Source: Candidatus Omnitrophota bacterium (GTDB lineage Bacteria > Omnitrophota > Gorgyraeia > Duberdicusellales > 4484-171). From it: DNA of 64,000 nt. The notes beneath the pieces were generated by a model, which worked only from the letters and a program-made list of their open reading frames with translations, did not search any database and had not been told where the DNA came from. The position numbers and the translations under genes are program-made. The stretch is taken from positions 32,001 through 96,000 of the forward strand of contig JAIPGM010000004.1 in assembly GCA_021735655.1 (NCBI GenBank). Direction: 5' to 3'. Below are positions 28,045 to 55,721 of the stretch, piece after piece; within the stretch, counting starts at the first letter, position 1; every line of letters begins with the position of its first letter.

Positions 28045-28077
28045 CTTTAGGCTCTATTGATGAAATCAGAAAGAAAA

Positions 28078-31050: not shown

Positions 31051-31063
31051 GCTAATAAATACA

Positions 31064-32194: not shown

Positions 32195-32210
32195 CGCAAT
32201 AGGAAGAATT

Positions 32211-32669: not shown

Positions 32670-35203
32670 TTTATCTTAAAAGCATAAAGGTTAGCTTTAT
32701 CTAACGCTATAAACGGTTCAAAGTAATCAAGAGTCTTTGCTTTTGTAAAATAAAGCTTAGCAAGCAAGCTCTCGCCTAAAGCTTTATTCGAAACTCCGAT
32801 ACATTTCCACTGACCGTTATCCTTAAAAAAGAAACCACCAGAATTAAATCGCATTGGCTGGCTCATTTTAGATTCATTATAGGTCAAGTTGTCGCCATCA
32901 AAAATAAAAGTAAAACTAAGCTCTTTGAATTTTTTTTCCGGCTGTTGAAACATCGTAGCCCGAGAACTATTCAGAGCTAAAACTATGCCATTGTCAAAAT
33001 AAACAGTTCCTGAATCCTCCCTACCTGCCGCCAAATAAAGCGGAAATGTCCACTTCTCAGAAACTACCTCGTTTACCTCTCGGCCAATTCTAGAAAACAT
33101 TACCTCTTCGTAAAGAAGTTCTGCTTCTGACTGCTTTAAACCAAACACCCGAAAAAGATTATTAATCACTTCCAACTTCGGCAGATCTTGATGCTTGATT
33201 ATATAAACTTTGGCAAAATTCCAATTACCTAAAAAAGAAATGGCTGAAATTTTATAGATCATGGTCTCATCAATAAACAAATAGGCTGGTGCCGGAATTT
33301 TAACAAAAATTACATCTTTTATTTTCTTAGCTAATCCTTTAGGTATTTTGTACTCTTTAAAAATAGCCTCGATATTTTTTTCTTCAGATCTCAATATCTT
33401 ATTAAGAAAAACAATTGAGGAAAAGTCGTCACCAAGGAAAGAATTAATTTGATCAAAAAGTGCGTCTGAAGAATTATTGATCATACGTAAAATTCGTACA
33501 GCTTCCTCTTCGTTACCAGCCAAGAAAACCCTCGCCATCCAATAAGTAATCGGTGCATCTTGAATTTGTGGGTCGACTAAGGTACGTCGATTAGCTATCT
33601 CTTTAAACCAGTTGCCATAATCCCACCAACTATTAATTACGCTATTCTCAGGTGTTTTTTCCTTTATTTGGATCATAAGATCATACCAACCATCATTAAG
33701 TATTGGAAACTGTATACTGGCTTGAGAAAAGCTTCTTCGCACCGGAATTGAAACTACAAGGCAAATTAAACAAACCGCACTCAAAATAAGGCCACTTCTA
33801 ACCTTATGGCTACTAACGCCTCTTACCCAATTCGGAAGTAACCGCCAGACATCGCCCAAGCTAACACTTAAAAAAATACCTAAAGGCACAAAAAGGAATT
33901 GAGTAAAACGCAACCCTTTTAGGCTGGCAAAAAACATAACAAAGGTCCAACAGCTAAGAATCAATACTATATCTGCCCGCTTGCCTCTTTTCTCTCGCAA
34001 ATATGTCCAAAGCAAACCAAACAAAGACAACATAAATATAGCCCAACCGCCAGTATATACCGGAATACTTGTAAAGCTTCCTTGCTTTAGCTCTGACACC
34101 GTATATAAAACTGAGGGCCAAATCGAGAAAGAAAGAGAGTTGCCCAATCTTAAATTGCTAGCTAAAGAACCATAAAGAAAAGAAAAAGGTTCAACCTTTG
34201 CAATAAGTAAACAAAAAATTACACTCCCCGATAAGAAAACAGCCAGAGAAACTAGATAGGGTGCATTTTTTTTCTTCAGGGTATCTCTATCTTTAAAATG
34301 TAAACAAAAATTATTAGCCAAGGTCGCAAGAAAAAATATAACGATTACCGCGAAAATAAACCACCAACCAACCCAGCTAAAAGCATATAATCCTAAAAGC
34401 AATGAAGCTAATAAAGAGTACTTAACGATTTGTATAAAAGTTTTGCTTTTTAGCCCTATACCAAGAAACCAAACTATCAACAAAGGAAATAAAACATTAA
34501 ATACATCCTGGTCAAACCAACCAGCAGAACTACGATGAATAAACACCGGAGAAAGACCAATAAAGATAATCGCAAATATTCCGGAAATGTTCGAAAAGAA
34601 ATAACGACAGAATAGGTAAAGAACAATACAAAACACAAAGGTAAGGAAAACCGGCAAATAAAAAACAAATTTCTCCAAAGACAGGTTGGGGAAAATAAAT
34701 GAAACTGCCCTATATAAATAGGCTGAAAAATAATAAAGAAACCTCTCAGGTGGAACTAACCCTCCCTGGGGGGCAAGCATAAACTTATCATAGATCTTGC
34801 CGTCTACTATCTTATTTCCCGGATAACCATTTTCTAAGGTAAGCCTAGTAAAACGTTTTCGACAATAAGGATCAACTTCAAGTAAGTAAGTCTGACCACT
34901 ATCATCTTGATATTGTGACTTTAGCCGCTCGTATTCCTTATTAACTCGCAGTTTAAAGCCTTTAGAATTCTTTCTGCCCTCTTTGACTACCTGCTTAGCA
35001 ATTTTTTCCTTTATCAAAGAGTTATAGCCAGGATACTGCTTTTGGGTAAATTCTCGAGCCTGAGAAAGCATCCGATCCTCTATATTAAGATGGGCTCTTT
35101 TCTTAAGTTGGGGAAAGTTGGCCGGAAATAAACGTAGGTAGACATTTAGCCCCAATACAGTTGCGAGGATTAAAAAAATGGTTACTTTTTTTAGCTTATC
35201 CAT
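32657..35203 (-). CDS. STT3/PglB/AglB-family oligosaccharyltransferase (polytopic N-terminal domain + periplasmic C-terminal domain)
   Basis: 848 aa with about 13 predicted TM segments, then SWWDYGNWF...TLVD, matching the PglB hallmark WWDYG...TLVDGG. Acidic loop motifs EVDPY and WFDQD in the external loops. Confidence 0.75.
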   Translation of the reverse strand: MDKLKKVTIFLILATVLGLNVYLRLFPANFPQLKKRAHLNIEDRMLSQAREFTQKQYPGYNSLIKEKIAKQVVKEGRKNSKGFKLRVNKEYERLKSQYQDDSGQTYLLEVDPYCRKRFTRLTLENGYPGNKIVDGKIYDKFMLAPQGGLVPPERFLYYFSAYLYRAVSFIFPNLSLEKFVFYLPVFLTFVFCIVLYLFCRYFFSNISGIFAIIFIGLSPVFIHRSSAGWFDQDVFNVLFPLLIVWFLGIGLKSKTFIQIVKYSLLASLLLGLYAFSWVGWWFIFAVIVIFFLATLANNFCLHFKDRDTLKKKNAPYLVSLAVFLSGSVIFCLLIAKVEPFSFLYGSLASNLRLGNSLSFSIWPSVLYTVSELKQGSFTSIPVYTGGWAIFMLSLFGLLWTYLREKRGKRADIVLILSCWTFVMFFASLKGLRFTQFLFVPLGIFLSVSLGDVWRLLPNWVRGVSSHKVRSGLILSAVCLICLVVSIPVRRSFSQASIQFPILNDGWYDLMIQIKEKTPENSVINSWWDYGNWFKEIANRRTLVDPQIQDAPITYWMARVFLAGNEEEAVRILRMINNSSDALFDQINSFLGDDFSSIVFLNKILRSEEKNIEAIFKEYKIPKGLAKKIKDVIFVKIPAPAYLFIDETMIYKISAISFLGNWNFAKVYIIKHQDLPKLEVINNLFRVFGLKQSEAELLYEEVMFSRIGREVNEVVSEKWTFPLYLAAGREDSGTVYFDNGIVLALNSSRATMFQQPEKKFKELSFTFIFDGDNLTYNESKMSQPMRFNSGGFFFKDNGQWKCIGVSNKALGESLLAKLYFTKAKTLDYFEPFIALDKANLYAFKIKWKN

Positions 35204-35215
35204 ATCTTTATCGAT

Positions 35216-35243
35216 ATTTTACCATACTAAGTTTAAATCGCAA
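35216..35243 (-). promoter_or_regulatory. Candidate sigma70-like promoter for the OST gene (TTGCGA-16 bp-TAAAAT on the minus strand)
   Basis: Minus-strand TTGCGA (35243-35238) and TAAAAT (35221-35216), between the pilin A terminator and the OST ATG at 35203. Confidence 0.25.
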
Positions 35244-35279
35244 TAACCGGATTGACTTTAAAGGCGGGTCGTAAAAATA

Positions 35280-35304
35280 ATAAGGCGGTGGGAATCCCAC
35301 CGCC
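35280..35304 (-). terminator. Rho-independent terminator downstream of major pilin gene A
   Basis: Perfect 11-bp stem AAGGCGGTGGG-AAT-CCCACCGCCTT flanked by A/T runs on both sides, 24 nt after the pilin stop codon. Confidence 0.55.
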
Positions 35305-35327
35305 TTATTATTTAATCACTTTTTTGC

Positions 35328-35777
35328 TTACTGCATTTCAGCATAACCAGATGGACAAGCATTCGTACCTTCATGAGCTGCGGCAGCAGTGCCAACAGCA
35401 GTAGATCTACATAGAATTCCATCTTCATCTATATAGAAAGAATGACCTTGTGCAGCAGTATTAACTGCTCTAGCTGCAAAAGTCCCATTAGTGTTGTCGG
35501 TAACAACTGAAAAAGTATATCCCTGTTTAGTTCCACCAGCCAAAGTTGTATCAATATAGGGTGGATTCTCACTGCCTAAAGTTGCCAAGGCAGCATAACC
35601 AGGATTAGTTGCTCGATATTGAATCTCAGCGGCAGCAACTGTATGAGCGGCTGCAGCTGCAGCAGCTTCTTGGGCTGACAAACGAGCCCTCAAAAGATTG
35701 GGTATAGCTATCGCCGCTAAAAGAGCAATGATAGCTACAACGATCATAATTTCAACAAGAGTAAAACCTTTCTTCAT
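35328..35777 (-). CDS. pilA: Type IV major pilin (paralog A)
   Basis: MKKGFTLVEIMIVVAIIALLAAIAIPNL, a canonical prepilin leader and N-methylatable F+1. Strong GGAGG RBS. C-terminal CRSTAV...CPSGY disulfide loop. One N-G-T sequon. Confidence 0.9.
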   Translation of the reverse strand: MKKGFTLVEIMIVVAIIALLAAIAIPNLLRARLSAQEAAAAAAAHTVAAAEIQYRATNPGYAALATLGSENPPYIDTTLAGGTKQGYTFSVVTDNTNGTFAARAVNTAAQGHSFYIDEDGILCRSTAVGTAAAAHEGTNACPSGYAEMQ

Positions 35778-35930
35778 CTTAACACCTCCAAATTTTCAAA
35801 TGGCGAGATCCTCTTTTTTAAACTTTTTCACCTCCTTTTCAAAAAAGAACCTCATTAATAAAATAATATAAAGAACACTGTTTCAAGGGCTTAACTTAAG
35901 GCTTCTTGCCTATTTTACCCGACCACTTCA

Positions 35931-35959
35931 AATATAGCATATCGACCTCAGCTTGTCAA
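35931..35959 (-). promoter_or_regulatory. Candidate sigma70 promoter for pilin A (TTGACA-17 bp-TATATT on the minus strand), about 150-nt leader
   Basis: Minus-strand TTGACA (35959-35954) and TATATT (35936-35931), located just after the pilC stop codon. Confidence 0.3.
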
Positions 35960-35976
35960 CGCCAAGACTTAGCTTA

Positions 35977-37191
35977 TCAATGAACTCCGCCAATATATTG
36001 GGTAATTTTGATTATTGGCAAAAATAAAGAAACTACAATGCCACCAACGACTATTCCCAAAAAGCCAATAACTATAGGCTCGATTAAACTTGATAACCCA
36101 GCAACCATAGCATCAGTCTGCTCTTCATAAAATTGAGCTATCTTAGACAACATCTCCTCCAGCCTTCCGCTTTTTTCACCTACCGAAATCATCCTGGTAA
36201 CCATTGGAGGGAAAACTCCGGTTTTTTCTAAAGGAAAAGAAATCGGCTGTCCTTCTTGAATCGCTGTCCGGGACTCCATAACTGCCTCTTCAATAACAAC
36301 ATTTCCTGAGGTCTTGGCTACAATCTCCAAACACTTTAATATCGGAACTCCGCTACGAACCAAAGTAGAAAATGTCCGGGAAAATTTAGCAATCGCTAAC
36401 TTTCTAGCTAAATTTCCAAATACCGGAAGCCGTAAAATAAATTTATGGAAGTTGCGCTTGCCTTTTGGTGTTTTGATATAACGAGTAAAAAGCATGCCGC
36501 CGCCGCCTAAAATAATCAGTAAGCCAAGGATTGATGTTGGCTTTCGGGCCAAATCCGAAAAACTTATCAAAATTCTAGTAGGCAAAGGTAAAACCCCGCC
36601 AAGAGCAGAAAAAATCTCTTTAAAGGTAGGGATTACCTTAAAGATTAAAAACGAAGTTATGGCTATCGCCATAAGAACAATGATTACCGGATAATAAAGA
36701 GCCGAAATCACTTTCTTCCTTAAAGCACTGCTTTTTTCTAAGTAAAATGAAACCCGATCTAAAATCTCCGGCAAATTCCCAGAAGCTTCCGCTGCTTCAA
36801 CCATGCTTAAATAAATATCAGGAAAAACATCCTTATGCCCAGAAAGGCTGGCTGAAAGAGATGTTCCTTCTTTAACCTCGCGCAAAATAGCCCAGATAAC
36901 TTCCTTAAAATAAGCCTGCTCGGTTTGTTCGCCTAGAATGCCCAAACACTCAACTACCGGAATTCCGCTTTCAATTAAAGTAGTGAATTGACGCGAAAAA
37001 ATTACTAAATCATCGGTTTTTATCTTGCCTTTTCTTTTTTTCCTAGCCTTTTCCTTAGTCTCTTCAATTGAAAAAATAATACTCTCTTGGCCATGAAAAT
37101 GCTCAATAAGCTTTTGTTTAGACTCAGCCTCAATAACCCCCTTGGTTGTTTTTCCTTCCTTGTCCTTAACGATATATGAAAATAACTTCAT
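35977..37191 (-). CDS. pilC: Type IV pilus inner-membrane platform protein (GspF/PilC family)
   Basis: 404 aa, two T2SSF repeats (…GIPVVECLGILGEQ… / …GVPILKCLEIVAKT…), 3 TM segments. Confidence 0.9.
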   Translation of the reverse strand: MKLFSYIVKDKEGKTTKGVIEAESKQKLIEHFHGQESIIFSIEETKEKARKKRKGKIKTDDLVIFSRQFTTLIESGIPVVECLGILGEQTEQAYFKEVIWAILREVKEGTSLSASLSGHKDVFPDIYLSMVEAAEASGNLPEILDRVSFYLEKSSALRKKVISALYYPVIIVLMAIAITSFLIFKVIPTFKEIFSALGGVLPLPTRILISFSDLARKPTSILGLLIILGGGGMLFTRYIKTPKGKRNFHKFILRLPVFGNLARKLAIAKFSRTFSTLVRSGVPILKCLEIVAKTSGNVVIEEAVMESRTAIQEGQPISFPLEKTGVFPPMVTRMISVGEKSGRLEEMLSKIAQFYEEQTDAMVAGLSSLIEPIVIGFLGIVVGGIVVSLFLPIIKITQYIGGVH

Positions 37192-37192
37192 C

Positions 37193-38914
37193 TCACTCCG
37201 AGATTACCCGAATAACTTCCTCTGCCGAAGTTACCCCTTCGCTACATTTTAAAAAACCATCTTCGGCCAAAGATTGGTAACCCTTAAATTCTCGAGCGTA
37301 CTGGATAATCGTTTCCTCAGTTGCTAATTCAATAATCATCTCTCTTATTTTATCATCTAAAAGAATAATTTCCAGTATTGCTACTCTACCTCTATAACCG
37401 CTGTGAGCGCAGTGAGGACAGCCCTTGGCTCGATAAATCTTTTTTGGCTCGTTGTTCCCCATTATTTTACTACTTAATCCAAACCCCAAACGCTTCAATA
37501 AATCCTTATCCGGGATATATCCTTCCTTACATTTAGGACAAAGCTTACGCACTAAACGCTGAGCAGTAAGGGCAACTAACGATGAAGCTAACAGGAATGG
37601 CTCTGTACCCATATCGCGCAGACGAGCTATTGCTCCCACTGCGCTATTGGTATGAAGAGTAGAAAGTATGGTCTCGCCGGTTAAAGAAGCTTTAATCGCT
37701 GTGTCGGCAGTCTCAGCATCTCTGATTTCACCAACCATAATTACATCCGGTGATTGACGCAAAACCGACCGTAAACCAGCAGAAAAAGTTAAGCCGATTT
37801 CAGCATTAACTTGAATTTGAGTTATACCTTCTAAATGATACTCAACCGGCTCTTCAATAGTTATAATATTTTTATCAGTCGAGTTAATCTGATTAATGAT
37901 TGAATAAAGAGTTGTTGATTTACCGCTTCCAGTTGGCCCAGTAACTAACATTATTCCAAAGGGAGCTTTGATTGCCTCTTCAAACAAAGCCAGCGGCCCG
38001 GGCGAAAACCCTAGTTTTTTTAACCCTATCGATAAGCTCTCTCTATCGAGCACCCGGAGAACAAACTTCTCGCCAAAGTGGGTAGGTAAACTAGAAACTC
38101 TAAAATCTATTTCCCGAGACTCAAATTTAACCCGAAATCTACCGTCTTGAGGAAGCCGCGACTCAGTAATGTCTAGAGATGAAATGATCTTCAAGCGAGC
38201 AATTACGGCTTGCTGGCTGGTTTTAGGAAAACTAAACTCATCGGCCAAGGATCCATCTACTCGATAACGAATTAATAATTTATCTTCACAAGGCTCAATA
38301 TGGATATCTGATGCCCGCTTCTTTAAGGCATTATAAATAATAACATCAATTGCTCTCACGACCGGAGGATGCTTGCTTTCTGAAATTGAACTCTCTAGAT
38401 CTTGTTTAGACTCTTGATGCAACAATCCTTCGCCAACCGAATCAAGAGATACATCGCTACTAAGGGTTTCGGAAATATGTTCAGCCGACTTGTATAAAAA
38501 ATTTATGGCTCTACTTATATCCTTCTCACGAGAAAGAACCAAATCAACCTTTTCGGCATTGGTAATAATCTTTATGTCGTCATGAGTAATAACATCTAAA
38601 GGATTGGCTGTGGCCAAAGTCAGAACATTGCCGATCTTGCATAAAGGAAGAACCTTATGCTTAATTGCTATATCTTTAGGTAATAGCTCTTGATTCTTGT
38701 AAGGTAGTTTATATTTTTTTAAATCAAGAAAAGGGATCTTAAGTTCTTTGGAAAACATCAATAAGAGCTCTTCTTCGCTGATAAGCCCGCTCTCAATCAA
38801 AAGGCTCCTTAAATCAGCATAGGTACGAGCTCGTTTGGCAATATCGATAAGGACCTTCTTGTCACATTTTTTGTCCTCTTGAATGTACTTTATTATCTTC
38901 TCTTTTATGGTCAT
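37193..38914 (-). CDS. pilB: Type IV pilus assembly ATPase (GspE/PilB family) with N-terminal T2SSE_N/MshEN-type domain
   Basis: Walker A GPTGSGKST, Asp box, His box, tetracysteine CPKC...CPHC. 573 aa. Confidence 0.9.
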   Translation of the reverse strand: MTIKEKIIKYIQEDKKCDKKVLIDIAKRARTYADLRSLLIESGLISEEELLLMFSKELKIPFLDLKKYKLPYKNQELLPKDIAIKHKVLPLCKIGNVLTLATANPLDVITHDDIKIITNAEKVDLVLSREKDISRAINFLYKSAEHISETLSSDVSLDSVGEGLLHQESKQDLESSISESKHPPVVRAIDVIIYNALKKRASDIHIEPCEDKLLIRYRVDGSLADEFSFPKTSQQAVIARLKIISSLDITESRLPQDGRFRVKFESREIDFRVSSLPTHFGEKFVLRVLDRESLSIGLKKLGFSPGPLALFEEAIKAPFGIMLVTGPTGSGKSTTLYSIINQINSTDKNIITIEEPVEYHLEGITQIQVNAEIGLTFSAGLRSVLRQSPDVIMVGEIRDAETADTAIKASLTGETILSTLHTNSAVGAIARLRDMGTEPFLLASSLVALTAQRLVRKLCPKCKEGYIPDKDLLKRLGFGLSSKIMGNNEPKKIYRAKGCPHCAHSGYRGRVAILEIILLDDKIREMIIELATEETIIQYAREFKGYQSLAEDGFLKCSEGVTSAEEVIRVISE

Positions 38915-38915
38915 C

Positions 38916-40619
38916 TTATTTTAATGGTTCATCTGGCGCAGTAACTTTAAGTACTTCTTCTAAAGTAGTAATTCCTTTTTCGACTTTCAAAATTCCATCC
39001 TGGCGCAAAGTACGCATACCTAGGTTACGGGCTTTTTTCTTAATGATACTTTCTGAAGCCGAAGAGTTTACTAAATTTTTTATTTGTTGATCAACGTGCA
39101 GATACTCACAAAGGGCAACTCTTCCCTTATAGCCAGTATTCTGGCAATTTCTACAGCCTTTTGATTTATAAATTAAAACTTCTTTATTAATAAGATATCG
39201 CTCGCGAACCGAATCAGATAATTCAAATTCCTCTTTACACTTAGGACACAACATTCGCACTAAACGCTGAGTGAGCACCCCAACCAATGTCGAAGAAAGC
39301 AAAAATGGCTCAACTCCCATATTAATAAGACGAGTGATTGAACCTGCGCTGGTCGTAGTATGAAGTGTGGAAAGAACTAAGTGCCCGGTTAAAGCTGACT
39401 TTATGGCCATGTCAGCAGTGTCAGCATCTCTGACCTCACCGATCATTATTATGTCCGGATCCTGACGCAATATTGAACGTAAACAGGCAGAAAAAGTCAA
39501 ATGAATCGAAGGATTAATACTGGTTTGGTTGATCCCTTTTAATTGGTATTCTATCGGATCTTCTACGGTAACTATGTTCTTCTCCGGTGCGTAAACATGT
39601 TTAATCACCGAATAAAGGCTGGTGGTCTTACCGGCCCCAGTAGGACCACAAACCAAAAGAAGACCGTGAGACTTAAGACTATCTTCCCGTAACTGTTTTA
39701 AAACATCTTCTTCAAACCCCAAAAGATCCAAATTAAGTAAAGCAGTTGCCTTATCTAAAACTCTAATCGCGACTTTTTCTCCAACACTAGTAGGAAGAAC
39801 TGAAACTCGAAAATCAACATTTTTATTTGAAATTCTGCTCCGAAATCTTCCTTCTTGAGGCAAACGGTGTTCGGCAATGTTTAAATTACACATTACCTTT
39901 ATCCGTGATATAGCAAAAGGATGAATTTTTTTTGAAAAGGTATCGATTTCTTGCAAAATTCCGTCAATCCGAAATCGAATCCGACTTACGTTTTCTAAGG
40001 GTTCTATCAGAATATCTGAAGCGGCCTCTTCAACTGCCTTAGTTAAAAAAGAATTGGTAAACTTTATTACCGGAGCCTCTTCAATTGAACGGACGATTTC
40101 TTCTTGAGTTACTTCCTTTTTGACCTTTTTTACAAACTCTAAGCTTTCGGCATGCTGCCCCTTAATAATATCCTCAATCGAAACCATATGGACCTGAGAA
40201 TAATGCATTGAGATGGCTTCTTTTATTTCTGAAAGCGGGGCAATTATCGGATTTACTTCACACTTAGTAATTTTTTTAATATCGTCAATAACTAAAATAT
40301 CTAAAGGATCACCCATGGCCAAGGTTAAGGTGTTGCCAATCTTGCCGATTGGTAAAACCTTATGGTCTCGGGCGACTCTTTCCGGAACTAAAGATATGAT
40401 CTCCTTGGGAATATTAAGATTAAGGATTCGAACCGGTGGGATTGAAAGATAGCTAGATAGTAAATCGAGAAGATCTGGTTCTTTTATGTAGCCTAACTGC
40501 ATAAGCTGCTCAACTAAAGAACCGCCCTTCTCCTTGTGGACGACTAAGACTTTATCTAAATCCTGTTTAGTTAAAAGTCCTTTTTCTAATATGTAATCGG
40601 TAAATTTTTTACTCTTCAT
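38916..40619 (-). CDS. Second GspE/PilB-family secretion ATPase paralog with N-terminal T2SSE_N domain
   Basis: Walker A GPTGAGKTT, CPKC...CRNC; 567 aa. Its N-domain IGNTLTLAMGDPLD matches the one in the standalone ORF. Confidence 0.9.
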   Translation of the reverse strand: MKSKKFTDYILEKGLLTKQDLDKVLVVHKEKGGSLVEQLMQLGYIKEPDLLDLLSSYLSIPPVRILNLNIPKEIISLVPERVARDHKVLPIGKIGNTLTLAMGDPLDILVIDDIKKITKCEVNPIIAPLSEIKEAISMHYSQVHMVSIEDIIKGQHAESLEFVKKVKKEVTQEEIVRSIEEAPVIKFTNSFLTKAVEEAASDILIEPLENVSRIRFRIDGILQEIDTFSKKIHPFAISRIKVMCNLNIAEHRLPQEGRFRSRISNKNVDFRVSVLPTSVGEKVAIRVLDKATALLNLDLLGFEEDVLKQLREDSLKSHGLLLVCGPTGAGKTTSLYSVIKHVYAPEKNIVTVEDPIEYQLKGINQTSINPSIHLTFSACLRSILRQDPDIIMIGEVRDADTADMAIKSALTGHLVLSTLHTTTSAGSITRLINMGVEPFLLSSTLVGVLTQRLVRMLCPKCKEEFELSDSVRERYLINKEVLIYKSKGCRNCQNTGYKGRVALCEYLHVDQQIKNLVNSSASESIIKKKARNLGMRTLRQDGILKVEKGITTLEEVLKVTAPDEPLK

Positions 40620-41060
40620 TTAAGGGTAGAATCTACCTATACCACTACGTATGTCTGAAGGGGTACTAACAAATATTTGGATATCGCAATGGGTCAGGTC
40701 TTCTAAATCTTCAATGGCATGAATATTAAGAGGATTGGCCATAGCTAAAGTCAAAGTGTTCCCTATTTTATCTATTGGAAGTAAACAATAATGACCGCAA
40801 ACGTTTTTGGGGACTAAAGAAACTACCTCTTCGGAAACTTGATAGTTCTCTAAAGGAAGATAGGGATAACCAAACTGTAAAGACAAGCAATAGGCAATAT
40901 CTTCCTCTTTGGCAAAGCCTAAACTTACAATGACTTCACCGATTAAACCTCCTTGACGTTTCTGGCTTGTTATAGCTTCCTTCAGTTGATCGGGAGTAAT
41001 TACCCCTCTTTCTGCTAAAATCTGCCCCAAAGGCTTATCTATTTTTTTGTGAGATTTCAT
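40620..41060 (-). CDS. Standalone T2SSE_N / MshEN-type domain protein (predicted c-di-GMP-binding)
   Basis: 146 aa. PLGQILAERGVITPDQLKEAITSQ fits the MshEN motif RLGxxLLxxGxIxxxQLxxALxxQ. IGNTLTLAMANPLN is the shared N-domain block. Confidence 0.7.
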   Translation of the reverse strand: MKSHKKIDKPLGQILAERGVITPDQLKEAITSQKRQGGLIGEVIVSLGFAKEEDIAYCLSLQFGYPYLPLENYQVSEEVVSLVPKNVCGHYCLLPIDKIGNTLTLAMANPLNIHAIEDLEDLTHCDIQIFVSTPSDIRSGIGRFYP

Positions 41061-42380
41061 TTAATTATCTTGCTTATTTTTCTTAAGCTTGGTGAATTTA
41101 ATCAACTCTTTGGCAGTTGTCCCGTCCAATGGGCTTGCTGCCACCGAAAAAGAAAGCTTAACTTTTCCCTGAGTTATTACCTTAAGAGCGGCTTCTGCCT
41201 TCTTCGCTGCCTCTTGAGAATGACGCTTATTGCTTTCTATAATAATGGCACCTAAGGTTTGGGGGCCTATTCTTCCGGCGATATCAATCGGACGCAAACT
41301 TCTCTTAAAGCCATGGGCGATTTTTTTAAGTATCTTCTCAGATTCAATCAAACCAAATTCTTTCTGATATTTATCAGGATCTAACAAACTAACCGAGATA
41401 AAGCCACAGGGACGCTGATAAATGCTTGAGCGCCTTATTTCTTCATCAAGCCTTCTAATAATTACCTTTTCATTATATAGATCAGTCAAATCGTCAAGCA
41501 CCTCTAAATCTTCAATCTTTGAAGAAAGACGTCGATGCTCCCAAATAAGAGTTACATTTTGAGAAAATAGGTTCAAAACATCTATTTCGTCTTTGCTAAA
41601 ATTATACTCATCCTGATTATTGCCGACTCCGACGATACCAACAACTATGCCTTTAGCAACAACCGGGACTAAAGCCATATTCACAAGCCCCAATTCTTTA
41701 GCCCACCCCAGATAAGGCTTAGGTTTATTGCTAGAATCAACAACTGACAGCTTCATCCTCTGAGGTAAATCACTATTACGATTTTCAATAAAAGAATCGA
41801 TAATCGGTATTTCTACTCCTAAAAAGGAAATTGGTTTTAGCTTACTTTGAGCATCATCTTTTAAGCTACAAAAACAAACATTAGTTTCCAAAATCTTCTT
41901 TAAATGCTCACTTAAAAACTTAATAATCTCTTCAGCCGGAGCATCCTTAGAAAATAAATCATTGGCCTGTAGAATAGCTGAGAGGACAAGAACTTTCTTA
42001 GTGACCTCTCGGTTGAGTTCTTCGGTTTTTTGAGTAAAGTCTTTTAATTCTTCAAACCCGCTTTTAACTTTATCCGAAAGTACGTTAATAACTGTCTCTA
42101 GGCTCTGGACTTCATCTGAAATTTCTGGAGCCTGTTCGCCAATATCTTCTAAAGCAGTCTTTGATTGTGTATATAGTCTAATAATTGATGAAAAAACCTC
42201 AAAAACAACTCGCCATCCCAAAATTACAACTAATAATAATGTCGTAGCTGCAAAAAAAGATATCTGGTATCCGAATAAATAGTAAAGAAGCACAATCAAC
42301 GGAATGAGAGAAACCAAAGCAATCGAAATCCAAATCCTTCTGGCTAGACTTAAATTAGTTATTCTATTTTTTGTTTTCAC
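41061..42380 (-). CDS. Membrane-anchored GAF + degenerate GGDEF protein (PelD-like c-di-GMP receptor architecture)
   Basis: 2 N-terminal TM segments, a coiled segment, a GAF-like block, then a GGDEF fold where the A-site reads GRIGPQTL instead of GG(D/E)EF. The RxxD I-site (RPID) is retained 5 aa upstream. Confidence 0.6.
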   Translation of the reverse strand: MKTKNRITNLSLARRIWISIALVSLIPLIVLLYYLFGYQISFFAATTLLLVVILGWRVVFEVFSSIIRLYTQSKTALEDIGEQAPEISDEVQSLETVINVLSDKVKSGFEELKDFTQKTEELNREVTKKVLVLSAILQANDLFSKDAPAEEIIKFLSEHLKKILETNVCFCSLKDDAQSKLKPISFLGVEIPIIDSFIENRNSDLPQRMKLSVVDSSNKPKPYLGWAKELGLVNMALVPVVAKGIVVGIVGVGNNQDEYNFSKDEIDVLNLFSQNVTLIWEHRRLSSKIEDLEVLDDLTDLYNEKVIIRRLDEEIRRSSIYQRPCGFISVSLLDPDKYQKEFGLIESEKILKKIAHGFKRSLRPIDIAGRIGPQTLGAIIIESNKRHSQEAAKKAEAALKVITQGKVKLSFSVAASPLDGTTAKELIKFTKLKKNKQDN

Positions 42381-42662
42381 TCTGCCCCCTCTTATAATAA
42401 TATAGTATTTATACGCTTACTACAAAATACTAACACCTTTCATTGCTAGTGTCAACTCGACTGAACCGAAAACATATTATATTTACTGTAATTTTAGACA
42501 AAACCGCTAGTTTAATTCAACTAAAGTAAGCCCCCTTTGGCTTCATGATCTTACCTCAGTTAAGAGGATAAATATTCTGAGCATCCCTCCAAGAAATAAA
42601 CTGAGCATCGGCATCTAAGCCCAAGGGCTCTATTGCCAATATGTCATCTTTACTGTATTTAT

Positions 42663-43532
42663 CTATTCAATATCTTGCCAAGACACTGTCTCCGAAGATG
42701 AGAACCCCAAATTAGCTAAAGCTGCACTTATCAGGTCAGGGTCATAAGCTAAATCGACACTGCCCTTAATGGTAGTATCTATACCGGCGCCGCTTTCAGC
42801 AAGAACTGACCCGCTGATAGCAACATTACCGGTAATTGAAAGTTCCCCGATAACATAAATTATACCTTCAAAATTTTCAGTTCCCGACATGTGAACGTCC
42901 CCTTCTATGACTAAAATCCCGCTGCCCTGTAAATTTCCTGCCGTTGTCAAAGTTACCCCCGGAGAAACCTCAACCCAGGTTATGCCGTCAACCGGCTCAC
43001 CAAAAGTGCTTTCATCGTAAAGGTGCGTGGCCATATTCTTTACTGATTCTTTACTATTTGCAAACAAATCCGAAAAATTTAAAACCGCTTGTTCATTGAA
43101 CGAATCCTCAGGAGTAATGGTATATGCCTGGCCTTTAATTACTAAATCACCTGTTGTCTCAATCGCGTATTGGAACTTGGAGGAATCAGGAGGATCTACT
43201 CTTACAATTGCGCGTAAAGACTTTTCGATTGTTGCCCCGGAAGATAAAGTAACTGTGCCGGTTGAGTCGATCTGATAATACCAATTACCTAACGCTTCTG
43301 TGGTTGCCGCATAACAATAGTTACTTTTCATACATCCAGATGTATTGTCGGGTAGATTACCCTTGCTCATTGCAATACCAGCCTCGGCCAGCCAAAAAGC
43401 TTCGACAGCCCCTACATATCTTGTGGTAAGCTTGTTCTCATTTATAGTTTTTAAAAAAAGTGCTGTCGATAGCATAATCATAATCAACATCATTAAAAGA
43501 CTAAGGATTAAAACACCGCCTCTTTTATTCAT
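42663..43532 (-). CDS. PilX-like minor pilin / pilus assembly protein
   Basis: N-terminal MNKRGGVLILSLLMMLIMIM hydrophobic segment typical of the PilX N-terminus; 289 aa. Confidence 0.55.
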   Translation of the reverse strand: MNKRGGVLILSLLMMLIMIMLSTALFLKTINENKLTTRYVGAVEAFWLAEAGIAMSKGNLPDNTSGCMKSNYCYAATTEALGNWYYQIDSTGTVTLSSGATIEKSLRAIVRVDPPDSSKFQYAIETTGDLVIKGQAYTITPEDSFNEQAVLNFSDLFANSKESVKNMATHLYDESTFGEPVDGITWVEVSPGVTLTTAGNLQGSGILVIEGDVHMSGTENFEGIIYVIGELSITGNVAISGSVLAESGAGIDTTIKGSVDLAYDPDLISAALANLGFSSSETVSWQDIE

Positions 43533-44154
43533 TTCTTATTTTCACATCCAGTTCTAAGGTAATTGGAAGAAGGTCCCTCTCCCGAACCTGACTTTGGCCG
43601 GTGATCGCGACAACCATCCTCTTACTATTATTAAGATTATCTTTAAAATTATCCGTCGTTCTCGCGCCGCCAGTATCGATAGTATAAAAAGGCGGCTCTG
43701 TTATGCCTATAAACTCCCTGCTTTCTGTTGTATTGTTGCCGCTATCAATAACACTGCGCGTAATCTTACTTAAAGTATTATCGTAATCATACTCAATATA
43801 GTCCAGACTTAATATATAATTACCGGTAGTTGTATTTATCCCGTCAACCGTCCGAAATTTAATATACGAAGCAGAAGGGTTATTGTTGGCTATGTCCCAG
43901 CAAGGAGCCTGGCGGATATCTCTAACTATTAAATTCCCTATCGACCTTATCTTAGCCTGAAAATCTATTTTGGCAGTCATTACCGGAAAAACTGATTCTC
44001 CTGCTTGAAGAACTCTAACCACTGCAGTAGCAATAAGTGACAGCACCAGAGAAGCAATCAATATCTCCGTAAGGGTAAATGCTTTCTGCTTAGCGATGAA
44101 TGCATGTTGAGAGCTCAAAATATCTTGTTTTCTGCCTTTCAGACCAGCTAACAT
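43525..44154 (-). CDS. Minor (pseudo)pilin with prepilin-type N-terminus (PilW/PilV-like)
   Basis: QKAFTLTEILIASLVLSLIATAVV class-III leader; 209 aa. Confidence 0.65.
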   Translation of the reverse strand: MLAGLKGRKQDILSSQHAFIAKQKAFTLTEILIASLVLSLIATAVVRVLQAGESVFPVMTAKIDFQAKIRSIGNLIVRDIRQAPCWDIANNNPSASYIKFRTVDGINTTTGNYILSLDYIEYDYDNTLSKITRSVIDSGNNTTESREFIGITEPPFYTIDTGGARTTDNFKDNLNNSKRMVVAITGQSQVRERDLLPITLELDVKIRNE

Positions 44155-44497
44155 TTGCTATTACCTCCGTAAGCGACGTTTCTGTACCTGCCGCCTGAAC
44201 AGTAACATTCTCATCTATCAAATTATCAAACACCGGCGGAGAATAAACATCTATATCCCCATAAGATAAGGTCTTGATCTCCTCTAATACACATTGAGCA
44301 TCGTTAGCCGCAGCTACTAAGTTATTGCTTGATTCATTGAGAAAAGCGCAAGAAACAAAAGCCATAATCAACCCACTAGCAACTATCATTATAATAGCCG
44401 CAGCTATCATCACTTCCAATAGAGTAAACCCAGCCCGCTTAGAAAAACTCTTACGCATAGCTTTATTTATTTGGCCTTTTTCCTTAAAATTCCTCAT
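44090..44497 (-). CDS. Minor (pseudo)pilin with prepilin-type N-terminus (PilV/FimT-like)
   Basis: RAGFTLLEVMIAAAIIMIVASGL class-III leader; 135 aa. Confidence 0.65.
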   Translation of the reverse strand: MRNFKEKGQINKAMRKSFSKRAGFTLLEVMIAAAIIMIVASGLIMAFVSCAFLNESSNNLVAAANDAQCVLEEIKTLSYGDIDVYSPPVFDNLIDENVTVQAAGTETSLTEVIANVSWSERQKTRYFELSTCIHR

Positions 44498-44597
44498 AAC
44501 CCAATATTTAACCTACCCTCTCAATTCAATTTTACCATTTAAGGGGAGACCTTTCAACTAGACTAAAAAAGTAAACTCAGTTAAGGATTTTTAGTCC

Positions 44598-45113
44598 TTA
44601 GTAATCCTTAACAATGCCGATAATTTCATCAACAAAGGTTTCCTCGGCACTTAAGAGATTAAGGTGATGTTTAAGAAGGAGGCGTTGGTGAACTGGAAAT
44701 TCTTCTTCAATCGCAATGTTCTCAGACAACCATTGCTTTACTTTCTCTAAGAATCGTTTCCTCAAACGCAAGCGGGCCATTACTTCTTTTGTATCTAAAA
44801 AAGGAAGGAAATATAAAGGAATGTCGATATCGATAAACGGCCGCTTCTCGCTCAATAAAGCTTCTAGGGCCAGCCTTAAAAATTCTTTATTACCATGAGG
44901 AGTAATAGAGTATACGTATCTAGGCAGTCTTCCTTTATCTTTAGCAGTAGTCTTTTTGATGAGCCCTTCTCGGGCCATAATCTTTAAAGGATAGTAGATT
45001 GATTTATTTTCAAGAGAGGTAAAAACAGCGAGGTCTTTCTTTATAATCTTTTTTATCTCGTAACCGTGTCGTGGGCTATTTTTTAAAATACCTAATATTA
45101 TTAGGCGTTGCAT
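44598..45113 (-). CDS. PadR-family transcriptional regulator
   Basis: LIILGILKNSPRHGYEIKKII...YYPLKIMAREGLI wHTH, 171 aa with a C-terminal extension. First gene of the pilus-gene strand run. Confidence 0.75.
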   Translation of the reverse strand: MQRLIILGILKNSPRHGYEIKKIIKKDLAVFTSLENKSIYYPLKIMAREGLIKKTTAKDKGRLPRYVYSITPHGNKEFLRLALEALLSEKRPFIDIDIPLYFLPFLDTKEVMARLRLRKRFLEKVKQWLSENIAIEEEFPVHQRLLLKHHLNLLSAEETFVDEIIGIVKDY

Positions 45114-45116
45114 CCG

Positions 45117-46070
45117 TTACTCGTTAAAAACTCCCATCTTTCTGTAACGCTGTTGTCTAGAGCTTAGCAATTGCGGTACAGAGAGCTGAGTAAGTTCGTC
45201 TAAATTTTTATTAACTGCTTTTTTTAAATTACCGGCTGATGCTTCATACTCCCAATGAGCGCCACCCTCAACTTCAGGAATCACCCCATCAATGAGCCCC
45301 AAAGAAAGAAGCTCCGGAGCAGTAAGCTTTAAAACATCAGCTGCTTTTTCACGTTTAGATGCATCTTTCCAAAGAATTGCTGCGCAACCTTCAGGTGAAA
45401 TAACCGAATAATAAGAATACTCCATAACCAAAACCCTGTCTCCAACACCGATACCTAAAGCCCCGCCGCTTCCACCTTCGCCGATGACTACGACTAAAAT
45501 CGGCACTTTGAGCAAAAACATATCTCTAATATTTTCAGCAATTGCCTGAGCCTGGCCCCTCTCTTCGGCCCCTACTCCCGGGTAAGCTCCCGGAGTATCA
45601 ACTAAACAAAGAATTGGCATTGAAAAACGCTCAGCCAATTTCATCACCCGCATAGCTTTGCGATATCCTTCCGGATGAGCACAGCCAAAATTACGCTCAA
45701 TGTTTTCCTTGGTATCTTTACCCTTTTGATGCCCGATGATAGCAATTTTTCTATCATCCAGCTTAGCAAGACCTGAGATTAAAGCTAGATCATCACCATA
45801 AAGACGATCGCCACAAAGAGAAACAAAATCTTTAAAAATTAAATTTATATAATCAAGGGTGGTTGGCCGATTAGGATGACGGGCGATTTGAACTTTTTGC
45901 CAAGCCGATAGGCCAGAATAAACTTCTTTCTTCAAAGTTTGCAGCTTCTCTTCCAAATCGGAAATCTCAGAGTTAAGATCAACCGCCTTATCCTTGGAGA
46001 ACTTTCGTAACTCCTCAATTTTATTCTCTAGCTCAATAATTGGTTTTTCAAAATCCCAAGTCTGCATCAT
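45117..46070 (-). CDS. accA: Acetyl-CoA carboxylase carboxyltransferase alpha subunit
   Basis: 317 aa; GGSGGALGIGVGD, PEGCAAILWKD blocks. Confidence 0.9.
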   Translation of the reverse strand: MMQTWDFEKPIIELENKIEELRKFSKDKAVDLNSEISDLEEKLQTLKKEVYSGLSAWQKVQIARHPNRPTTLDYINLIFKDFVSLCGDRLYGDDLALISGLAKLDDRKIAIIGHQKGKDTKENIERNFGCAHPEGYRKAMRVMKLAERFSMPILCLVDTPGAYPGVGAEERGQAQAIAENIRDMFLLKVPILVVVIGEGGSGGALGIGVGDRVLVMEYSYYSVISPEGCAAILWKDASKREKAADVLKLTAPELLSLGLIDGVIPEVEGGAHWEYEASAGNLKKAVNKNLDELTQLSVPQLLSSRQQRYRKMGVFNE

Positions 46071-48544: not shown

Positions 48545-49183
48545 TTATTCGGCTTCTTCGATGGAAAATAACTGAAAATGTTGTGGGCAAATAAAAGTAG
48601 TGTCAAAATCAGAAGTTCCTTTATAAAAAACGGCCTTATCTACAAAATTACTTAAATCCCCAACCTGTGAAATATCTAGCCTGGCACACCCTCTTAGCTT
48701 TCGACCATTAAATACTATCGTATTTCCTTTGCTCGCCTTCAGACAATAACAAGCTCCACAAGCCCTGCTGCCAGCCCGGTAGTTACATCTAGTTATAACG
48801 CCTTCACCCTTCTGAATAACTACTTCTGGCTGATCAGACTCTTCTTCTGAATCATCAATGTCTAGTTTGTTTTGAAAAGAACCCTTTTTTAACTCTCGGA
48901 GCTTACCAAAAAGCTCCTGAGTTGCCTTTTTATCTCTAAAGCAATCTTTCGGGCAACTTTCTGCCGTTTCGCAACAAGTAAATCCGCGAGAACCACAGCC
49001 TTTATCTTGACAAAATCCATCACCGCAACGATCAGTACATCTATCTAAAGGCTCATCATTAGCCTTCCCCTCTATGCCCGGCAGACCAGTTTCGATATCT
49101 ACAACTCTACCTTCAGAAAAAACATTCTGAAAGACAAAAAATGAAAATACCATAATTGAAATACTTATAGTTACTGGTTTCAT
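48545..49183 (-). CDS. Secreted cysteine-rich hypothetical protein (two Cys-rich modules separated by an acidic linker)
   Basis: Signal peptide; CTDRCGDGFCQDKGCGSRGFTCCETAESCPKDC, then DIDDSEEESD, then CNYRAGSRACGACYC...C...C. Confidence 0.4.
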   Translation of the reverse strand: MKPVTISISIMVFSFFVFQNVFSEGRVVDIETGLPGIEGKANDEPLDRCTDRCGDGFCQDKGCGSRGFTCCETAESCPKDCFRDKKATQELFGKLRELKKGSFQNKLDIDDSEEESDQPEVVIQKGEGVITRCNYRAGSRACGACYCLKASKGNTIVFNGRKLRGCARLDISQVGDLSNFVDKAVFYKGTSDFDTTFICPQHFQLFSIEEAE

Positions 49184-49193
49184 TTATTTGCCT

Positions 49194-49697
49194 CTACATC
49201 TTGGTAAAATTAACATCTTTGTCTTTCTTTTGTCTGTCAGTAATTTCTTTTTCCTCTTCCTCCTTGTCTACCACTCTCCTAAAAGACCCTTCTGAGGAAG
49301 ACCCTCCTCCAATTAGGATATTTTTTTCGGCATAGCCTTCAACAAGTTCAGCAAGCCGATCTCCTAATAATTTTCTTACACTCTTTAACTTCCGTTCATA
49401 GTAAACAATTAGCTTCTCCCCTTCCCCGGAAGCTTTCTCGTTAGCTTTCTTTATTTCTTCCTGGCTAGGTAAATCTTTATCTTCAGAAATAAAATTACTG
49501 ATTTCTTGCCAACGCTTAAGCAAGGAGCTGTCTTCTGAATTCTTTGCTTTCTCCACCTCTTCTTTTAGGTCTTTCTCTAGCTCTTTTGAAATCTCTAATG
49601 AAGTCTGGTTCTTTGTCTGATCTCCTCTTATCTCATCCAGTCGCAACTGGACTAAGCGGTACTCATCGACTAAACATTTTAAACGGTCTTTTCTCAT
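49194..49697 (-). CDS. Hypothetical charged/coiled-coil cytoplasmic protein
   Basis: 167 aa, very K/E-rich, with a GGGSSSEGS linker. Confidence 0.35.
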   Translation of the reverse strand: MRKDRLKCLVDEYRLVQLRLDEIRGDQTKNQTSLEISKELEKDLKEEVEKAKNSEDSSLLKRWQEISNFISEDKDLPSQEEIKKANEKASGEGEKLIVYYERKLKSVRKLLGDRLAELVEGYAEKNILIGGGSSSEGSFRRVVDKEEEEKEITDRQKKDKDVNFTKM

Positions 49698-49705
49698 AAT
49701 CCCTC

Positions 49706-50521
49706 CTAATTATTAATAAAATACTTATCGTACATATCTCGATAAAAATTAAAATAACTCTCTCTGCCAAACATCATATATCCATATTCTAAATCAGTTG
49801 GTGCTGTGGCATAACCGGCAAAAAGTGATTTTGAACTGGTCTTAAACCGATGCTTAATAGCCCAGGGCTGCCAAACCCGATAATAAAATTCCTTTGTCTT
49901 CTTAACTGCTTCAAATTCTACCTTGGCAATTTGCATAACAAACTCTTCTTTAGTAATTTTTCTATCTGCGGCTTTTTCAAAAATATCATTAAACTCATCT
50001 TTGTTGTTAATATTAATTAATTCAAATATAGCACAAGCCCACAGATCTTCAAAGGAAAGATCTCTGCCAATACTTTTCCGATTATGAGCCGTCTCTTTTG
50101 TATAAATTATATTTATACTAATAGATCCTCTGCGACCGGTTTGATTACGATTTACAGCTAACCAACCCTGAGGAGGATATTTGGGGTTCCAATCGACTAA
50201 CTCTCTAGAATCTTGACCAGCATATTTTCTAACTACCCACTGCCAAATAGAGTCTTCCTCGCTGACCGATCTTAGAAAATGGAACCTATTAACATACTTG
50301 GACATCCCCGGCCTGTCTTTAAGCATTTTTCGAATTTGTTGCTTCCCGTGGCGGATAGCCCGCTCCGATAAGTTTGTCCCTGAATATCGTGGGTCACTTC
50401 CGTATATTAGCCGATCCTCGAAAAGCACAAGATCAATCTTCAAATAAAGAAAAATTGCCCCTAAAACAAGAAAGCTGGCTATTATAAAAATTTTCCTCTG
50501 AGAAAAACCTTTAAAAACCAT
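49706..50521 (-). CDS. Hypothetical N-terminally membrane-anchored protein
   Basis: TM FIIASFLVLGAIFLYL then a 240-aa soluble domain with no recognisable motif. Confidence 0.4.
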   Translation of the reverse strand: MVFKGFSQRKIFIIASFLVLGAIFLYLKIDLVLFEDRLIYGSDPRYSGTNLSERAIRHGKQQIRKMLKDRPGMSKYVNRFHFLRSVSEEDSIWQWVVRKYAGQDSRELVDWNPKYPPQGWLAVNRNQTGRRGSISINIIYTKETAHNRKSIGRDLSFEDLWACAIFELININNKDEFNDIFEKAADRKITKEEFVMQIAKVEFEAVKKTKEFYYRVWQPWAIKHRFKTSSKSLFAGYATAPTDLEYGYMMFGRESYFNFYRDMYDKYFINN

Positions 50522-55720: not shown

Positions 55721-55721
55721 T

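Follow-up and report, generated by a model that had tools for sequence, protein, structure and literature searches.

A degenerate GGDEF membrane protein at the head of a conserved type IV pilus motor cassette in Omnitrophota

Does a protein deposited as a diguanylate cyclase and encoded among the motor genes of a type IV pilus (T4P) make cyclic di-GMP (c-di-GMP), bind it, or do neither? This question is raised by a gene in the 64,000-nucleotide stretch of Candidatus Omnitrophota DNA analysed here (GenBank assembly GCA_021735655.1, contig JAIPGM010000004.1, positions 32,001–96,000; hereafter the window). A minus-strand open reading frame (ORF) at 41061–42380 of the window, on the same strand as all other window features described below, opens with a GTG start codon, has a strong Shine–Dalgarno sequence (AGAGGGGG) just 5′ of this start, and encodes a 439-residue protein. 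A protein deposited at NCBI from a Candidatus Omnitrophica metagenome-assembled genome (MAG) is 100% identical to it and carries the annotation 'diguanylate cyclase', while a first-pass annotation of the window had proposed a c-di-GMP receptor of the PelD type. We use GGDEF* as shorthand for a catalytically degenerate GGDEF domain and for the protein that carries it. The gene heads a pilus motor cassette in which it is followed by a gene for a standalone MshEN protein and by two genes for PilB-type ATPases. With high probability, the GGDEF* protein is no enzyme but a regulator or scaffold, anchored in the membrane and devoted to this pilus motor module, and it probably helps to gate pilus assembly.

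Loss of catalytic residues in a conserved GGDEF domain

The C-terminal part of the protein has the GGDEF fold. Pfam and NCBIfam profiles place the domain at residues 291–428, well above threshold (PF00990, 45.5 bits; TIGR00254), and its motifs align to those of Leptospira DgcR, which upheld the earlier view that the domain is GGDEF-like; profile matches, fold and conservation together delimit the degenerate domain at residues 293–439 (41064–41504). Alignment to DgcR and translation located the active site (A-site), where the GGEEF of DgcR is replaced by GPQTL (residues 372–376; 41253–41267). The first-pass annotation had given the A-site as GRIGPQTL; the degeneracy that it described stands, but the string does not, as it adds three preceding residues to the pentapeptide. 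GG[DE]EF is found at this position in none of 51 relatives (and in none of 47 in a second set), and the site is hypervariable, with 40 different pentapeptides in the 51 sequences and no conserved acidic pair. Further losses emerged from a comparison with PleD, for which the two sequences were set by hand in an ungapped register that agrees with gap-free profile alignments to structures in the Protein Data Bank (PDB). In this register, the position of the Mg-binding Asp327 of PleD is occupied by S331 here and by E, K, Q or S across the family, and that of N335 by Q339 (Q or R in the family), while D344 and G339 correspond to the invariant residues E348 and G343, respectively. The protein also ends short of the K442/R446 'KxxGRN' motif of PleD. 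An apparent deletion of three residues in the DxFKxxNDxxGH region, suggested by the HMMER pairwise alignment to DgcR, was rejected as an alignment artefact, because DxLT and RxxD are as far apart here as in PleD and the profile alignments are ungapped.

With the A-site, the metal-binding Asp and the C-terminal K/R motif all lost, the earlier reading of the protein as something other than an active cyclase was upheld, and to judge from these residues the GGDEF* protein cannot plausibly be a cyclase. The public annotation implies the opposite, namely an active if unorthodox diguanylate cyclase that feeds c-di-GMP locally to the adjacent MshEN protein. This would suit a GGDEF fold that scores above threshold and the common arrangement of a cyclase beside a receptor gene, and relics such as GEEKI, REDRF, SDDEF and even GGDEF in divergent relatives suggest an active ancestor. 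Such an enzyme is nonetheless very improbable, given that no member of the subgroup to which the window protein belongs has GG[DE]EF or a conserved acidic pair at the hypervariable A-site, that the Mg-binding Asp and the C-terminal motif are missing, and that the relatives bearing GGDEF are also devoid of the other catalytic residues.

Loss of catalysis has not been accompanied by a general loss of constraint. At least 95% conservation is seen in 27 of the 138 columns of the GGDEF domain, including YQRPCG (321–326), G343, E348, D366, R370 and E382-x-N-K-R386, compared with only 4 of the 118 columns of the GAF domain, which is the least conserved domain of the protein. Because the catalytic residues are gone and yet no other part of the protein has as many invariant columns, the GGDEF domain is taken to be functional, though not as an enzyme. 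One such function could be to bind a guanine nucleotide, GTP or another, in the remnant of the A-site pocket without turning it over, so that the protein would report nucleotide pools rather than c-di-GMP. The equivalents of the guanine contacts of PleD are conservatively kept (E348, G343, and Q339 as Q or R), and FimX offers a precedent, as such binding has been suggested for its GDSIF site (summarised in PMC11656802). This function is improbable, however, as the metal-binding position varies among E, K, Q and S, the early end of the protein leaves it without the phosphate-binding K/R motif at the C-terminus, and the GG(D/E)EF hairpin is so variable that its 40 pentapeptides would not be tolerable under selection for ligand binding.

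Decay of the A-site is graded across the family: the divergent members L040, L041, L044–L046 and L049 carry more GGDEF-like relics (GEEKI, REDRF, EEDTL). A literal GGDEF occurs in two proteins of a sister Omnitrophota clade (P0299 and P0339), without other catalytic residues.

The remainder of the protein is that of a membrane-bound sensor. An AlphaFold2 (AF2) model with a mean predicted local distance difference test (pLDDT) score of 79.9 contains two alpha/beta domains (149–254 and 296–438), and the domain order is a transmembrane (TM) hairpin, a HAMP-derived segment, a coiled helix, a GAF domain, a linker helix and the degenerate GGDEF domain. The simpler order given by the first-pass annotation (TM, coiled region, GAF, GGDEF) is thus borne out by hydropathy, by the AF2 helices 42–80 and 90–144 and by profile matches. 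The two-helix TM hairpin (residues 12–64; 42189–42347) was assigned from hydropathy, conservation and AF2 helices at 12–35 and 42–80; its hydrophobic segments (~16–36 and ~41–64) are joined by a three-residue outer loop, GYQ, and preceded by a K/R-rich N-terminus, which hydropathy and the model together place inside, and P27 and G55-W56 are invariant. It is followed by a HAMP-derived segment (~64–106) and a long signalling helix (90–144) bearing the motif LQANDLFSK; by mean entropy, this region (41949–42188) is the most conserved part of the protein. HAMP (PF00672) gave no match above threshold in the 439-residue protein or in any of 51 family members, and the assignment was made by alignment to the sister clade, in which the Pfam HAMP domain of orthologue P0267 (residues 76–120; 35.7 bits) maps onto residues 64–106. 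From this alignment to a Pfam-positive HAMP domain, we conclude that the protein is, on sequence grounds, a descendant of a conventional HAMP-GAF-GGDEF sensor cyclase. The GAF domain (~145–262; 41595–41948) is connected to the GGDEF domain by an AF2-predicted linker helix (263–292; 41505–41594) that resembles those of coiled-coil-coupled dimeric cyclases.

The motor cassette and its MshEN protein

Homologues of the GGDEF* protein are numerous: at least 120 full-length sequences with 42–74% identity were found, all from the uncultured phylum Omnitrophota, and an exhaustive profile search returned ~360 cluster representatives at E ≤ 1e-30. In every sufficiently long locus among 49 species-level loci the gene order is GGDEF*, standalone MshEN, PilB-a, PilB-b, PilC and pilin, and it holds even where the identity of the GGDEF* protein has dropped to 28–38%; overall, the cassette was found in ~50 species and two deep clades, and the recurrence of gene order, domain architecture and motifs in ~50 species exceeds chance. 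Only a few nucleotides separate the GGDEF* and MshEN genes across these loci. In the window, stop and start codons abut (TAA ATG) at both the GGDEF*/MshEN and the MshEN/PilB-a junctions, a configuration by which the GGDEF* gene is predicted to be translationally coupled to the MshEN gene and which suggests that the two products may form a stoichiometric complex.

Linkage to MshEN and PilB is universal, while the upstream side varies and is occupied by a PadR gene, by minor pilin genes or, in the sister clade, by MreBCD. Since PadR is directly adjacent to GGDEF* in many species, the position after the minor pilins is a lineage-specific one. For the window itself, the first-pass annotation had placed the gene between minor pilins and MshEN/PilB rather than in a Pel locus, and this was confirmed within a complete T4P operon. 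The operon runs from PadR through two pilin-like genes, a PilX-like gene, GGDEF*, MshEN, the two PilB-type ATPases, PilC and the major pilin to an STT3-type oligosaccharyltransferase, a further pilin-like gene, PilM, PilN, PilO, a T2SSB-like gene, a secretin and an ExeA/MshM-like AAA ATPase. PilC, the GspF-type platform protein (35977–37191; T2SSF, TIGR02120 and the PilC NCBIfam model), is by synteny the last conserved motor gene, and the major pilin (35328–35777; N_methyl motif) is in most loci the next conserved gene after it.

The second gene of the cassette (40620–41060) encodes a 146-residue protein that consists of an MshEN domain (Pfam MshEN, 75.1 bits; NCBIfam NF053729, 61.6 bits against a cut-off of 38). 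The c-di-GMP motif of MshEN domains comprises two 24-residue units of the form [RKPN]hGxxhhxx[GAS]hhxxxxhxxxhxx[Q..], separated by a 5-residue spacer (PMC5013675). Scoring against a relaxed version of this motif of Wang et al. (PMC5013675), with 22 constrained positions, revealed an intact tandem motif at residues 10–62. In 36 of 48 species there is a single mismatch among the 22 positions, due to an invariant Leu in position 1 of the second unit. The 48 orthologues from these loci (L001–L049) are 57–89% identical, which exceeds the conservation of the GGDEF* protein. The family is found in Omnitrophota (145–148 residues, at least 68% identity), where it is labelled 'hypothetical' by NCBI and 'PilB' by JGI.

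The motif is not shared by the two assembly ATPases that follow. PilB-a (567 residues; 38916–40619), of the T4P/type II secretion system (T2SS) type, matches T2SSE with 435.7 bits, but its NF053729 score of 34.2 bits lies under the cut-off of 38, and it has 4–6 motif mismatches, including replacement of both key Gly residues, which are those whose backbone amides read guanine. Its paralogue PilB-b (573 residues; 37193–38914; T2SSE, 445.6 bits) has 9–10 mismatches, equal to a shuffled control, and thus no recognisable c-di-GMP motif. The two ATPases are ~40% identical to each other, and the tandem pair is kept in essentially all loci. As the motif is intact in the standalone protein and degenerate or absent in both PilB-a and PilB-b, the putative c-di-GMP-binding MshEN module is detached from the ATPases. 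The first-pass annotation had envisaged two c-di-GMP receptors at this pilus, the GGDEF* protein and MshEN/PilB; for the latter, the MshEN part applies to the separate 146-residue protein only, and the PilB part was not sustained. At the level of motifs, the c-di-GMP theme of the locus is reinforced by the adjacent MshEN protein.

This arrangement does not appear to have been reported. The cassette is not described in any paper or preprint that we found, and a 2024 review of PilB cofactors contains nothing comparable. The 'secretion system locus' described for Omnitrophota (gspD/E/F and rcpC beside giant genes; preprint 10.1101/2023.11.21.568195) was considered and proved to be a different locus. 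Several public MAGs with this Omnitrophota-specific cassette bear the title 'uncultured Planctomycetia bacterium' (L003, L005, L007, L009, L011 and others) and one bears 'Methanosarcinales archaeon'; these titles are probably taxonomic mislabels or reflect contaminated bins.

The I-site and the case for c-di-GMP binding

The GGDEF* protein retains an inhibitory-site (I-site) motif, RPID (R363–D366; 41283–41294), that aligns to the RKSD of DgcR in the alignment and translation. As the first-pass annotation had stated, it lies exactly five residues before the A-site; the spacer is IAGRI in the alignment to DgcR. Secondary-structure assignment of the AF2 model with DSSP places RPID in the canonical alpha2–beta2 loop. 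RxxD occurs in 43 of the 47 species and its Asp in all 47, and RP[IVQ]D is still kept by subgroup members with only 28–39% identity. Outside the subgroup, only 4 of 45 degenerate relatives carry RxxD, which indicates that the motif is easily lost, and this contrast argues for selection on RxxD within the subgroup. An inactive A-site combined with RxxD at the canonical position characterizes a functional class of degenerate-GGDEF I-site c-di-GMP receptors (PelD, PopA, CdgA and SgmT); both features were found here, and the GGDEF* protein, as far as its motifs go, fits this class.

Is it then a relative of PelD? The two proteins are similar in outline, in that both are membrane-anchored, with a cytoplasmic GAF domain followed by a degenerate GGDEF domain that has kept RxxD and lost the cyclase motif, and in both cases the receptor gene lies inside the operon of a machine, which for PelD is the machine that it controls (PMC7112168). 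The PelD-specific Pfam model gave no match in the 439-residue protein or in the family members scanned. Likewise, a PDB profile search listed more than 50 ordinary GGDEF or GAF chains, with no PelD among the matches listed. The top fold matches were 5llw, a PHY/GAF-coiled-coil-GGDEF cyclase, and 4zmu (Dcsbis), so that comparison by hidden Markov models (HMMs) and structure, which the first-pass annotation had called for, matched the protein to ordinary GAF/HAMP-GGDEF cyclases and not to PelD. Whereas PelD has four TM helices, the GGDEF* protein has two, and a HAMP-derived segment and long coiled helices are extra features. It is encoded with pilins, MshEN, two PilB proteins, PilC, PilMNO and a secretin rather than in a pel operon. 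PelD also binds c-di-GMP with a third essential Arg on the next helix (R402 in P. aeruginosa, R395 in B. cereus), mutation of which abolishes binding in both proteins (PMC7112168), and this residue is not conserved in the GGDEF* family. Membership of the PelD family is therefore not borne out by profile, fold, TM helices, third Arg or operon. What survives of the proposed PelD-like receptor is a degenerate A-site, a retained RxxD and a membrane-bound GAF-GGDEF architecture, and from the comparisons made the resemblance is one of convergent logic rather than membership.

The same comparisons bear on whether the protein could be a true PelD orthologue that steers a polysaccharide synthase, perhaps that of a Wzy/Wzz/glycosyltransferase locus ~10 kb away, with its adjacency to the pilus genes being accidental. 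The shared outline (TM, GAF and degenerate GGDEF with RxxD) and the presence of an exopolysaccharide-type locus at 51.5–57 kb and beyond would agree with this. Such an orthologue is extremely improbable, even more so than an active cyclase, as PelD-specific sequence or fold similarity and the pelA–G genes are absent, and synteny already contradicts it: linkage with MshEN, PilB and PilC is kept in ~50 species while upstream neighbours vary.

Several observations weigh against c-di-GMP binding at the I-site. Four of the 47 species have no Arg in the motif (GSVD, KPVD, KSID and SEID), although SEID belongs to locus L048, which is sister-clade-like, such that the Arg-less members within the subgroup number 3 of 46. 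A search of positions R+31 to R+35 for a counterpart of the third Arg of PelD yielded Arg in no more than 8 of 47 species, at 394 or 398. The residue at 394 is Lys in the window protein and varies across the family, the sole common basic residue nearby being Lys396 (37 of 47), and the PleD equivalent, R390, is likewise unconserved. The invariant K385/R386 pair was considered as a stand-in, and this candidacy is weakened because E-x-N-K-R (382–386) is common to sister-clade relatives without the I-site Arg and is thus unusable as a substitute. The GGDEF* proteins of the sister clade and of L048 hold the same cassette position with SE[IV]D in place of an Arg-bearing motif. Lastly, a six-frame search of the 64-kb window with the family GGDEF HMM, together with Pfam scans that included ~16 kb of flank, revealed no gene for an active cyclase, EAL or HD-GYP protein, although, with only ~80 kb of the genome covered, this result is uninformative. 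PilZ and GGDEF domains have been reported in Omnitrophota (preprint 10.1101/2023.11.21.568195), and phylum-level support for the use of c-di-GMP consists of this report and of an HD-GYP gene in the sister cassette.

The sister clade is informative in both directions. Its orthologues (460–490 residues) have a Pfam-detectable HAMP domain and a C-terminal GRN/GKN element, share the YQRPC and EKNKR signatures with the window clade and carry GGDEF-like relics at the A-site, such as SDDEF, but have S[ED][IV]D where the window clade has RxxD. Their cassette contains, between PilB-b and PilC, a REC-HD-GYP response-regulator gene in which the HD and HHExxDGxGYP motifs are intact (L050 and L052, at 14309–15379 in both), whereas the window's own cassette has no HD-GYP gene. 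The presence of an HD-GYP gene inside the sister cassette ties the cassette more firmly to c-di-GMP. Conversely, since an orthologue without the I-site Arg occupies the same cassette, the conserved pilus-linked role, as read from these alignments, does not strictly need a canonical I-site.

These data could also reflect a scaffold or transducer that works independently of nucleotides, in which the dead GGDEF domain is a protein-interaction module that, for example, tethers MshEN or the N-domains of PilB to the membrane. Input would then arrive via the TM, HAMP and GAF modules, and RxxD would be conserved for structure or partner binding. The sister-clade and L048 proteins without an I-site Arg and the missing third arginine of PelD are in keeping with such a scaffold, as are the stop–start junction with MshEN, which suggests a stoichiometric complex, and the fact that the most conserved features (YQRPC, E-x-N-K-R, R370 and helix 90–144) are found in both clades irrespective of the I-site. 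Set against this are the persistence of RxxD in the subgroup down to 28–39% identity while relatives lost it, the invariance of its Asp in 47 of 47 species, its canonical structural position, and a remaining cassette built from c-di-GMP parts. On balance, we regard the nucleotide-independent scaffold, which is the main rival and a serious one, as possible but rather doubtful, while c-di-GMP sensing by the GGDEF* protein via its I-site is a proposition for which the sequence evidence is evenly poised.

Our best explanation as a whole, in which a dead cyclase serves as an I-site c-di-GMP receptor and gates the pilus together with MshEN, could with equal justification hold or fail. The GGDEF* protein would form a parallel dimer at the inner membrane, would not synthesize c-di-GMP and, in the window clade, would bind it through the RxxD that it has kept. 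In concert with the standalone MshEN protein, whose translation is coupled to its own, it would pass on the level of c-di-GMP to both PilB motors and thereby gate pilus extension; we infer its physical contact with MshEN or with PilB as well as the sense in which pilus assembly is affected. A second input through the TM, HAMP and GAF modules is possible. More tentatively, and unlikely to hold in full, the c-di-GMP sensor may have been split from the motor, with GGDEF* docking the free MshEN protein and acting as a second receptor; this would create a two-tier gate, or a hand-off that selects the PilB paralogue to engage the pilus platform, and the sister clade would reach the same control without the I-site, by means of the HD-GYP phosphodiesterase encoded in its cassette.

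Related systems, neighbouring genes and implications

The closest functional precedents are PelD, CdgA of Bdellovibrio and the FimX–PilZ–PilB complex. CdgA (Bd3125) of Bdellovibrio bacteriovorus has a degenerate GGDEF domain (GVNEF), is a c-di-GMP receptor rather than an enzyme, is found at the pilus-bearing pole and is required if prey are to be invaded rapidly (PMC3983030). It shares with the GGDEF* protein a degenerate GGDEF domain linked to type IV pili, and Omnitrophota have also been proposed to be predators or epibionts (preprint 10.1101/2023.11.21.568195). The likeness, which is drawn from its description, has limits, since CdgA acts via RomR and a TPR hub protein and is not placed in a pilus motor operon by PMC3983030. 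In the FimX–PilZ–PilB system of Pseudomonas and Xanthomonas, FimX is a soluble REC-PAS-GGDEF-EAL protein that binds c-di-GMP through its EAL domain, and the adaptor is PilZ, whereas in the Omnitrophota cassette that place is taken by MshEN and neither EAL nor PilZ is present. For CdgA, we know of no standalone MshEN partner. The 146-residue protein has the same pair of 24-residue motifs with a 5-residue spacer as the MshE-type ATPases (Vibrio cholerae MshE, Myxococcus PilB and Thermus PilF; PMC5013675). In those enzymes, however, MshEN is the N-terminus of the ATPase, while in the Omnitrophota cassette it forms a polypeptide of its own, with a membrane-anchored GGDEF* protein as its pair, and the motifs of the ATPases are degenerate or absent. 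The proteins closest in fold, Dcsbis (PA2771) and the Idiomarina phytochrome cyclase of 5llw, are active enzymes with GGDEF or GGEEF and the full catalytic set that the GGDEF* family has lost.

Upstream of the GGDEF* gene in the window lie the PilX-like gene and the two pilin-like (minor pilin) genes (42663–44497), the placement of which is lineage-specific, and a PadR-family regulator (44598–45113; Pfam PadR), which is found upstream of GGDEF* in most loci. Its occurrence immediately upstream of the GGDEF* gene in many species suggests that PadR is a transcriptional regulator of the cassette. The 282-nucleotide gap upstream of the GGDEF* gene contains a promoter-like sequence, TTGACA-N17-TAGTAT with an extended −10 TG (42427–42455; 10 of 12 matches). 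Because promoter-like sites in this region are not above shuffled expectation, a sigma-70-like promoter in the gap is suggestive only. An Rfam scan of 27000–46000, including this gap, gave no match to a c-di-GMP riboswitch or any other known RNA.

Directly after the major pilin, the operon encodes an oligosaccharyltransferase of the STT3/PglB/AglB family (32657–35203; 848 residues) with the catalytic motif WWDYG at residues 526–530, and the major pilin itself has just one N-x-S/T sequon, within DNTNGT. O-glycosylation by PilO/PglL-type enzymes is the rule for bacterial pilins, so that an N-type oligosaccharyltransferase encoded among pilus genes looks archaeal-like. An AAA_22 ATPase (27247–28044; ExeA/MshM-like) directly follows the secretin gene and lends the operon an MSHA-like flavour. 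Upstream of the pilus operon, an exopolysaccharide-type locus (51531–56954) encodes TPR, Wzy_C, Wzz/GNVR tyrosine-kinase-like and beta-barrel porin proteins, and seven glycosyltransferase and two Bac_transf genes follow past the window end (L053). Three consecutive ORFs at 48545–50521 (212, 167 and 271 residues) have no Pfam match at E ≤ 0.01.

For sequence databases, the family amounts to a systematic misannotation, with hundreds of entries named 'diguanylate cyclase' or 'sensor domain-containing diguanylate cyclase' that have no catalytic residue at all. For experiment, the two clades offer a natural test of I-site retention, one with the Arg and no HD-GYP gene in the cassette and the other with HD-GYP and no Arg, and three small soluble fragments of the cassette are open to in vitro study of nucleotide binding and mutual interaction without culturing the organism. 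Omnitrophota and other ultra-small bacteria are believed to depend centrally on type IV pili for attachment to hosts or prey, and what is known of the regulation of pilus extension comes mostly from a small number of Proteobacteria. The combination of a dead cyclase with a detached MshEN sensor and a pair of PilB motors without c-di-GMP motifs of their own would represent a different solution used across the phylum and, should the more tentative split-sensor gate prove true, a hitherto undescribed wiring of c-di-GMP to type IV pili, in a phylum of nanobacteria with a putative predatory or epibiotic lifestyle.

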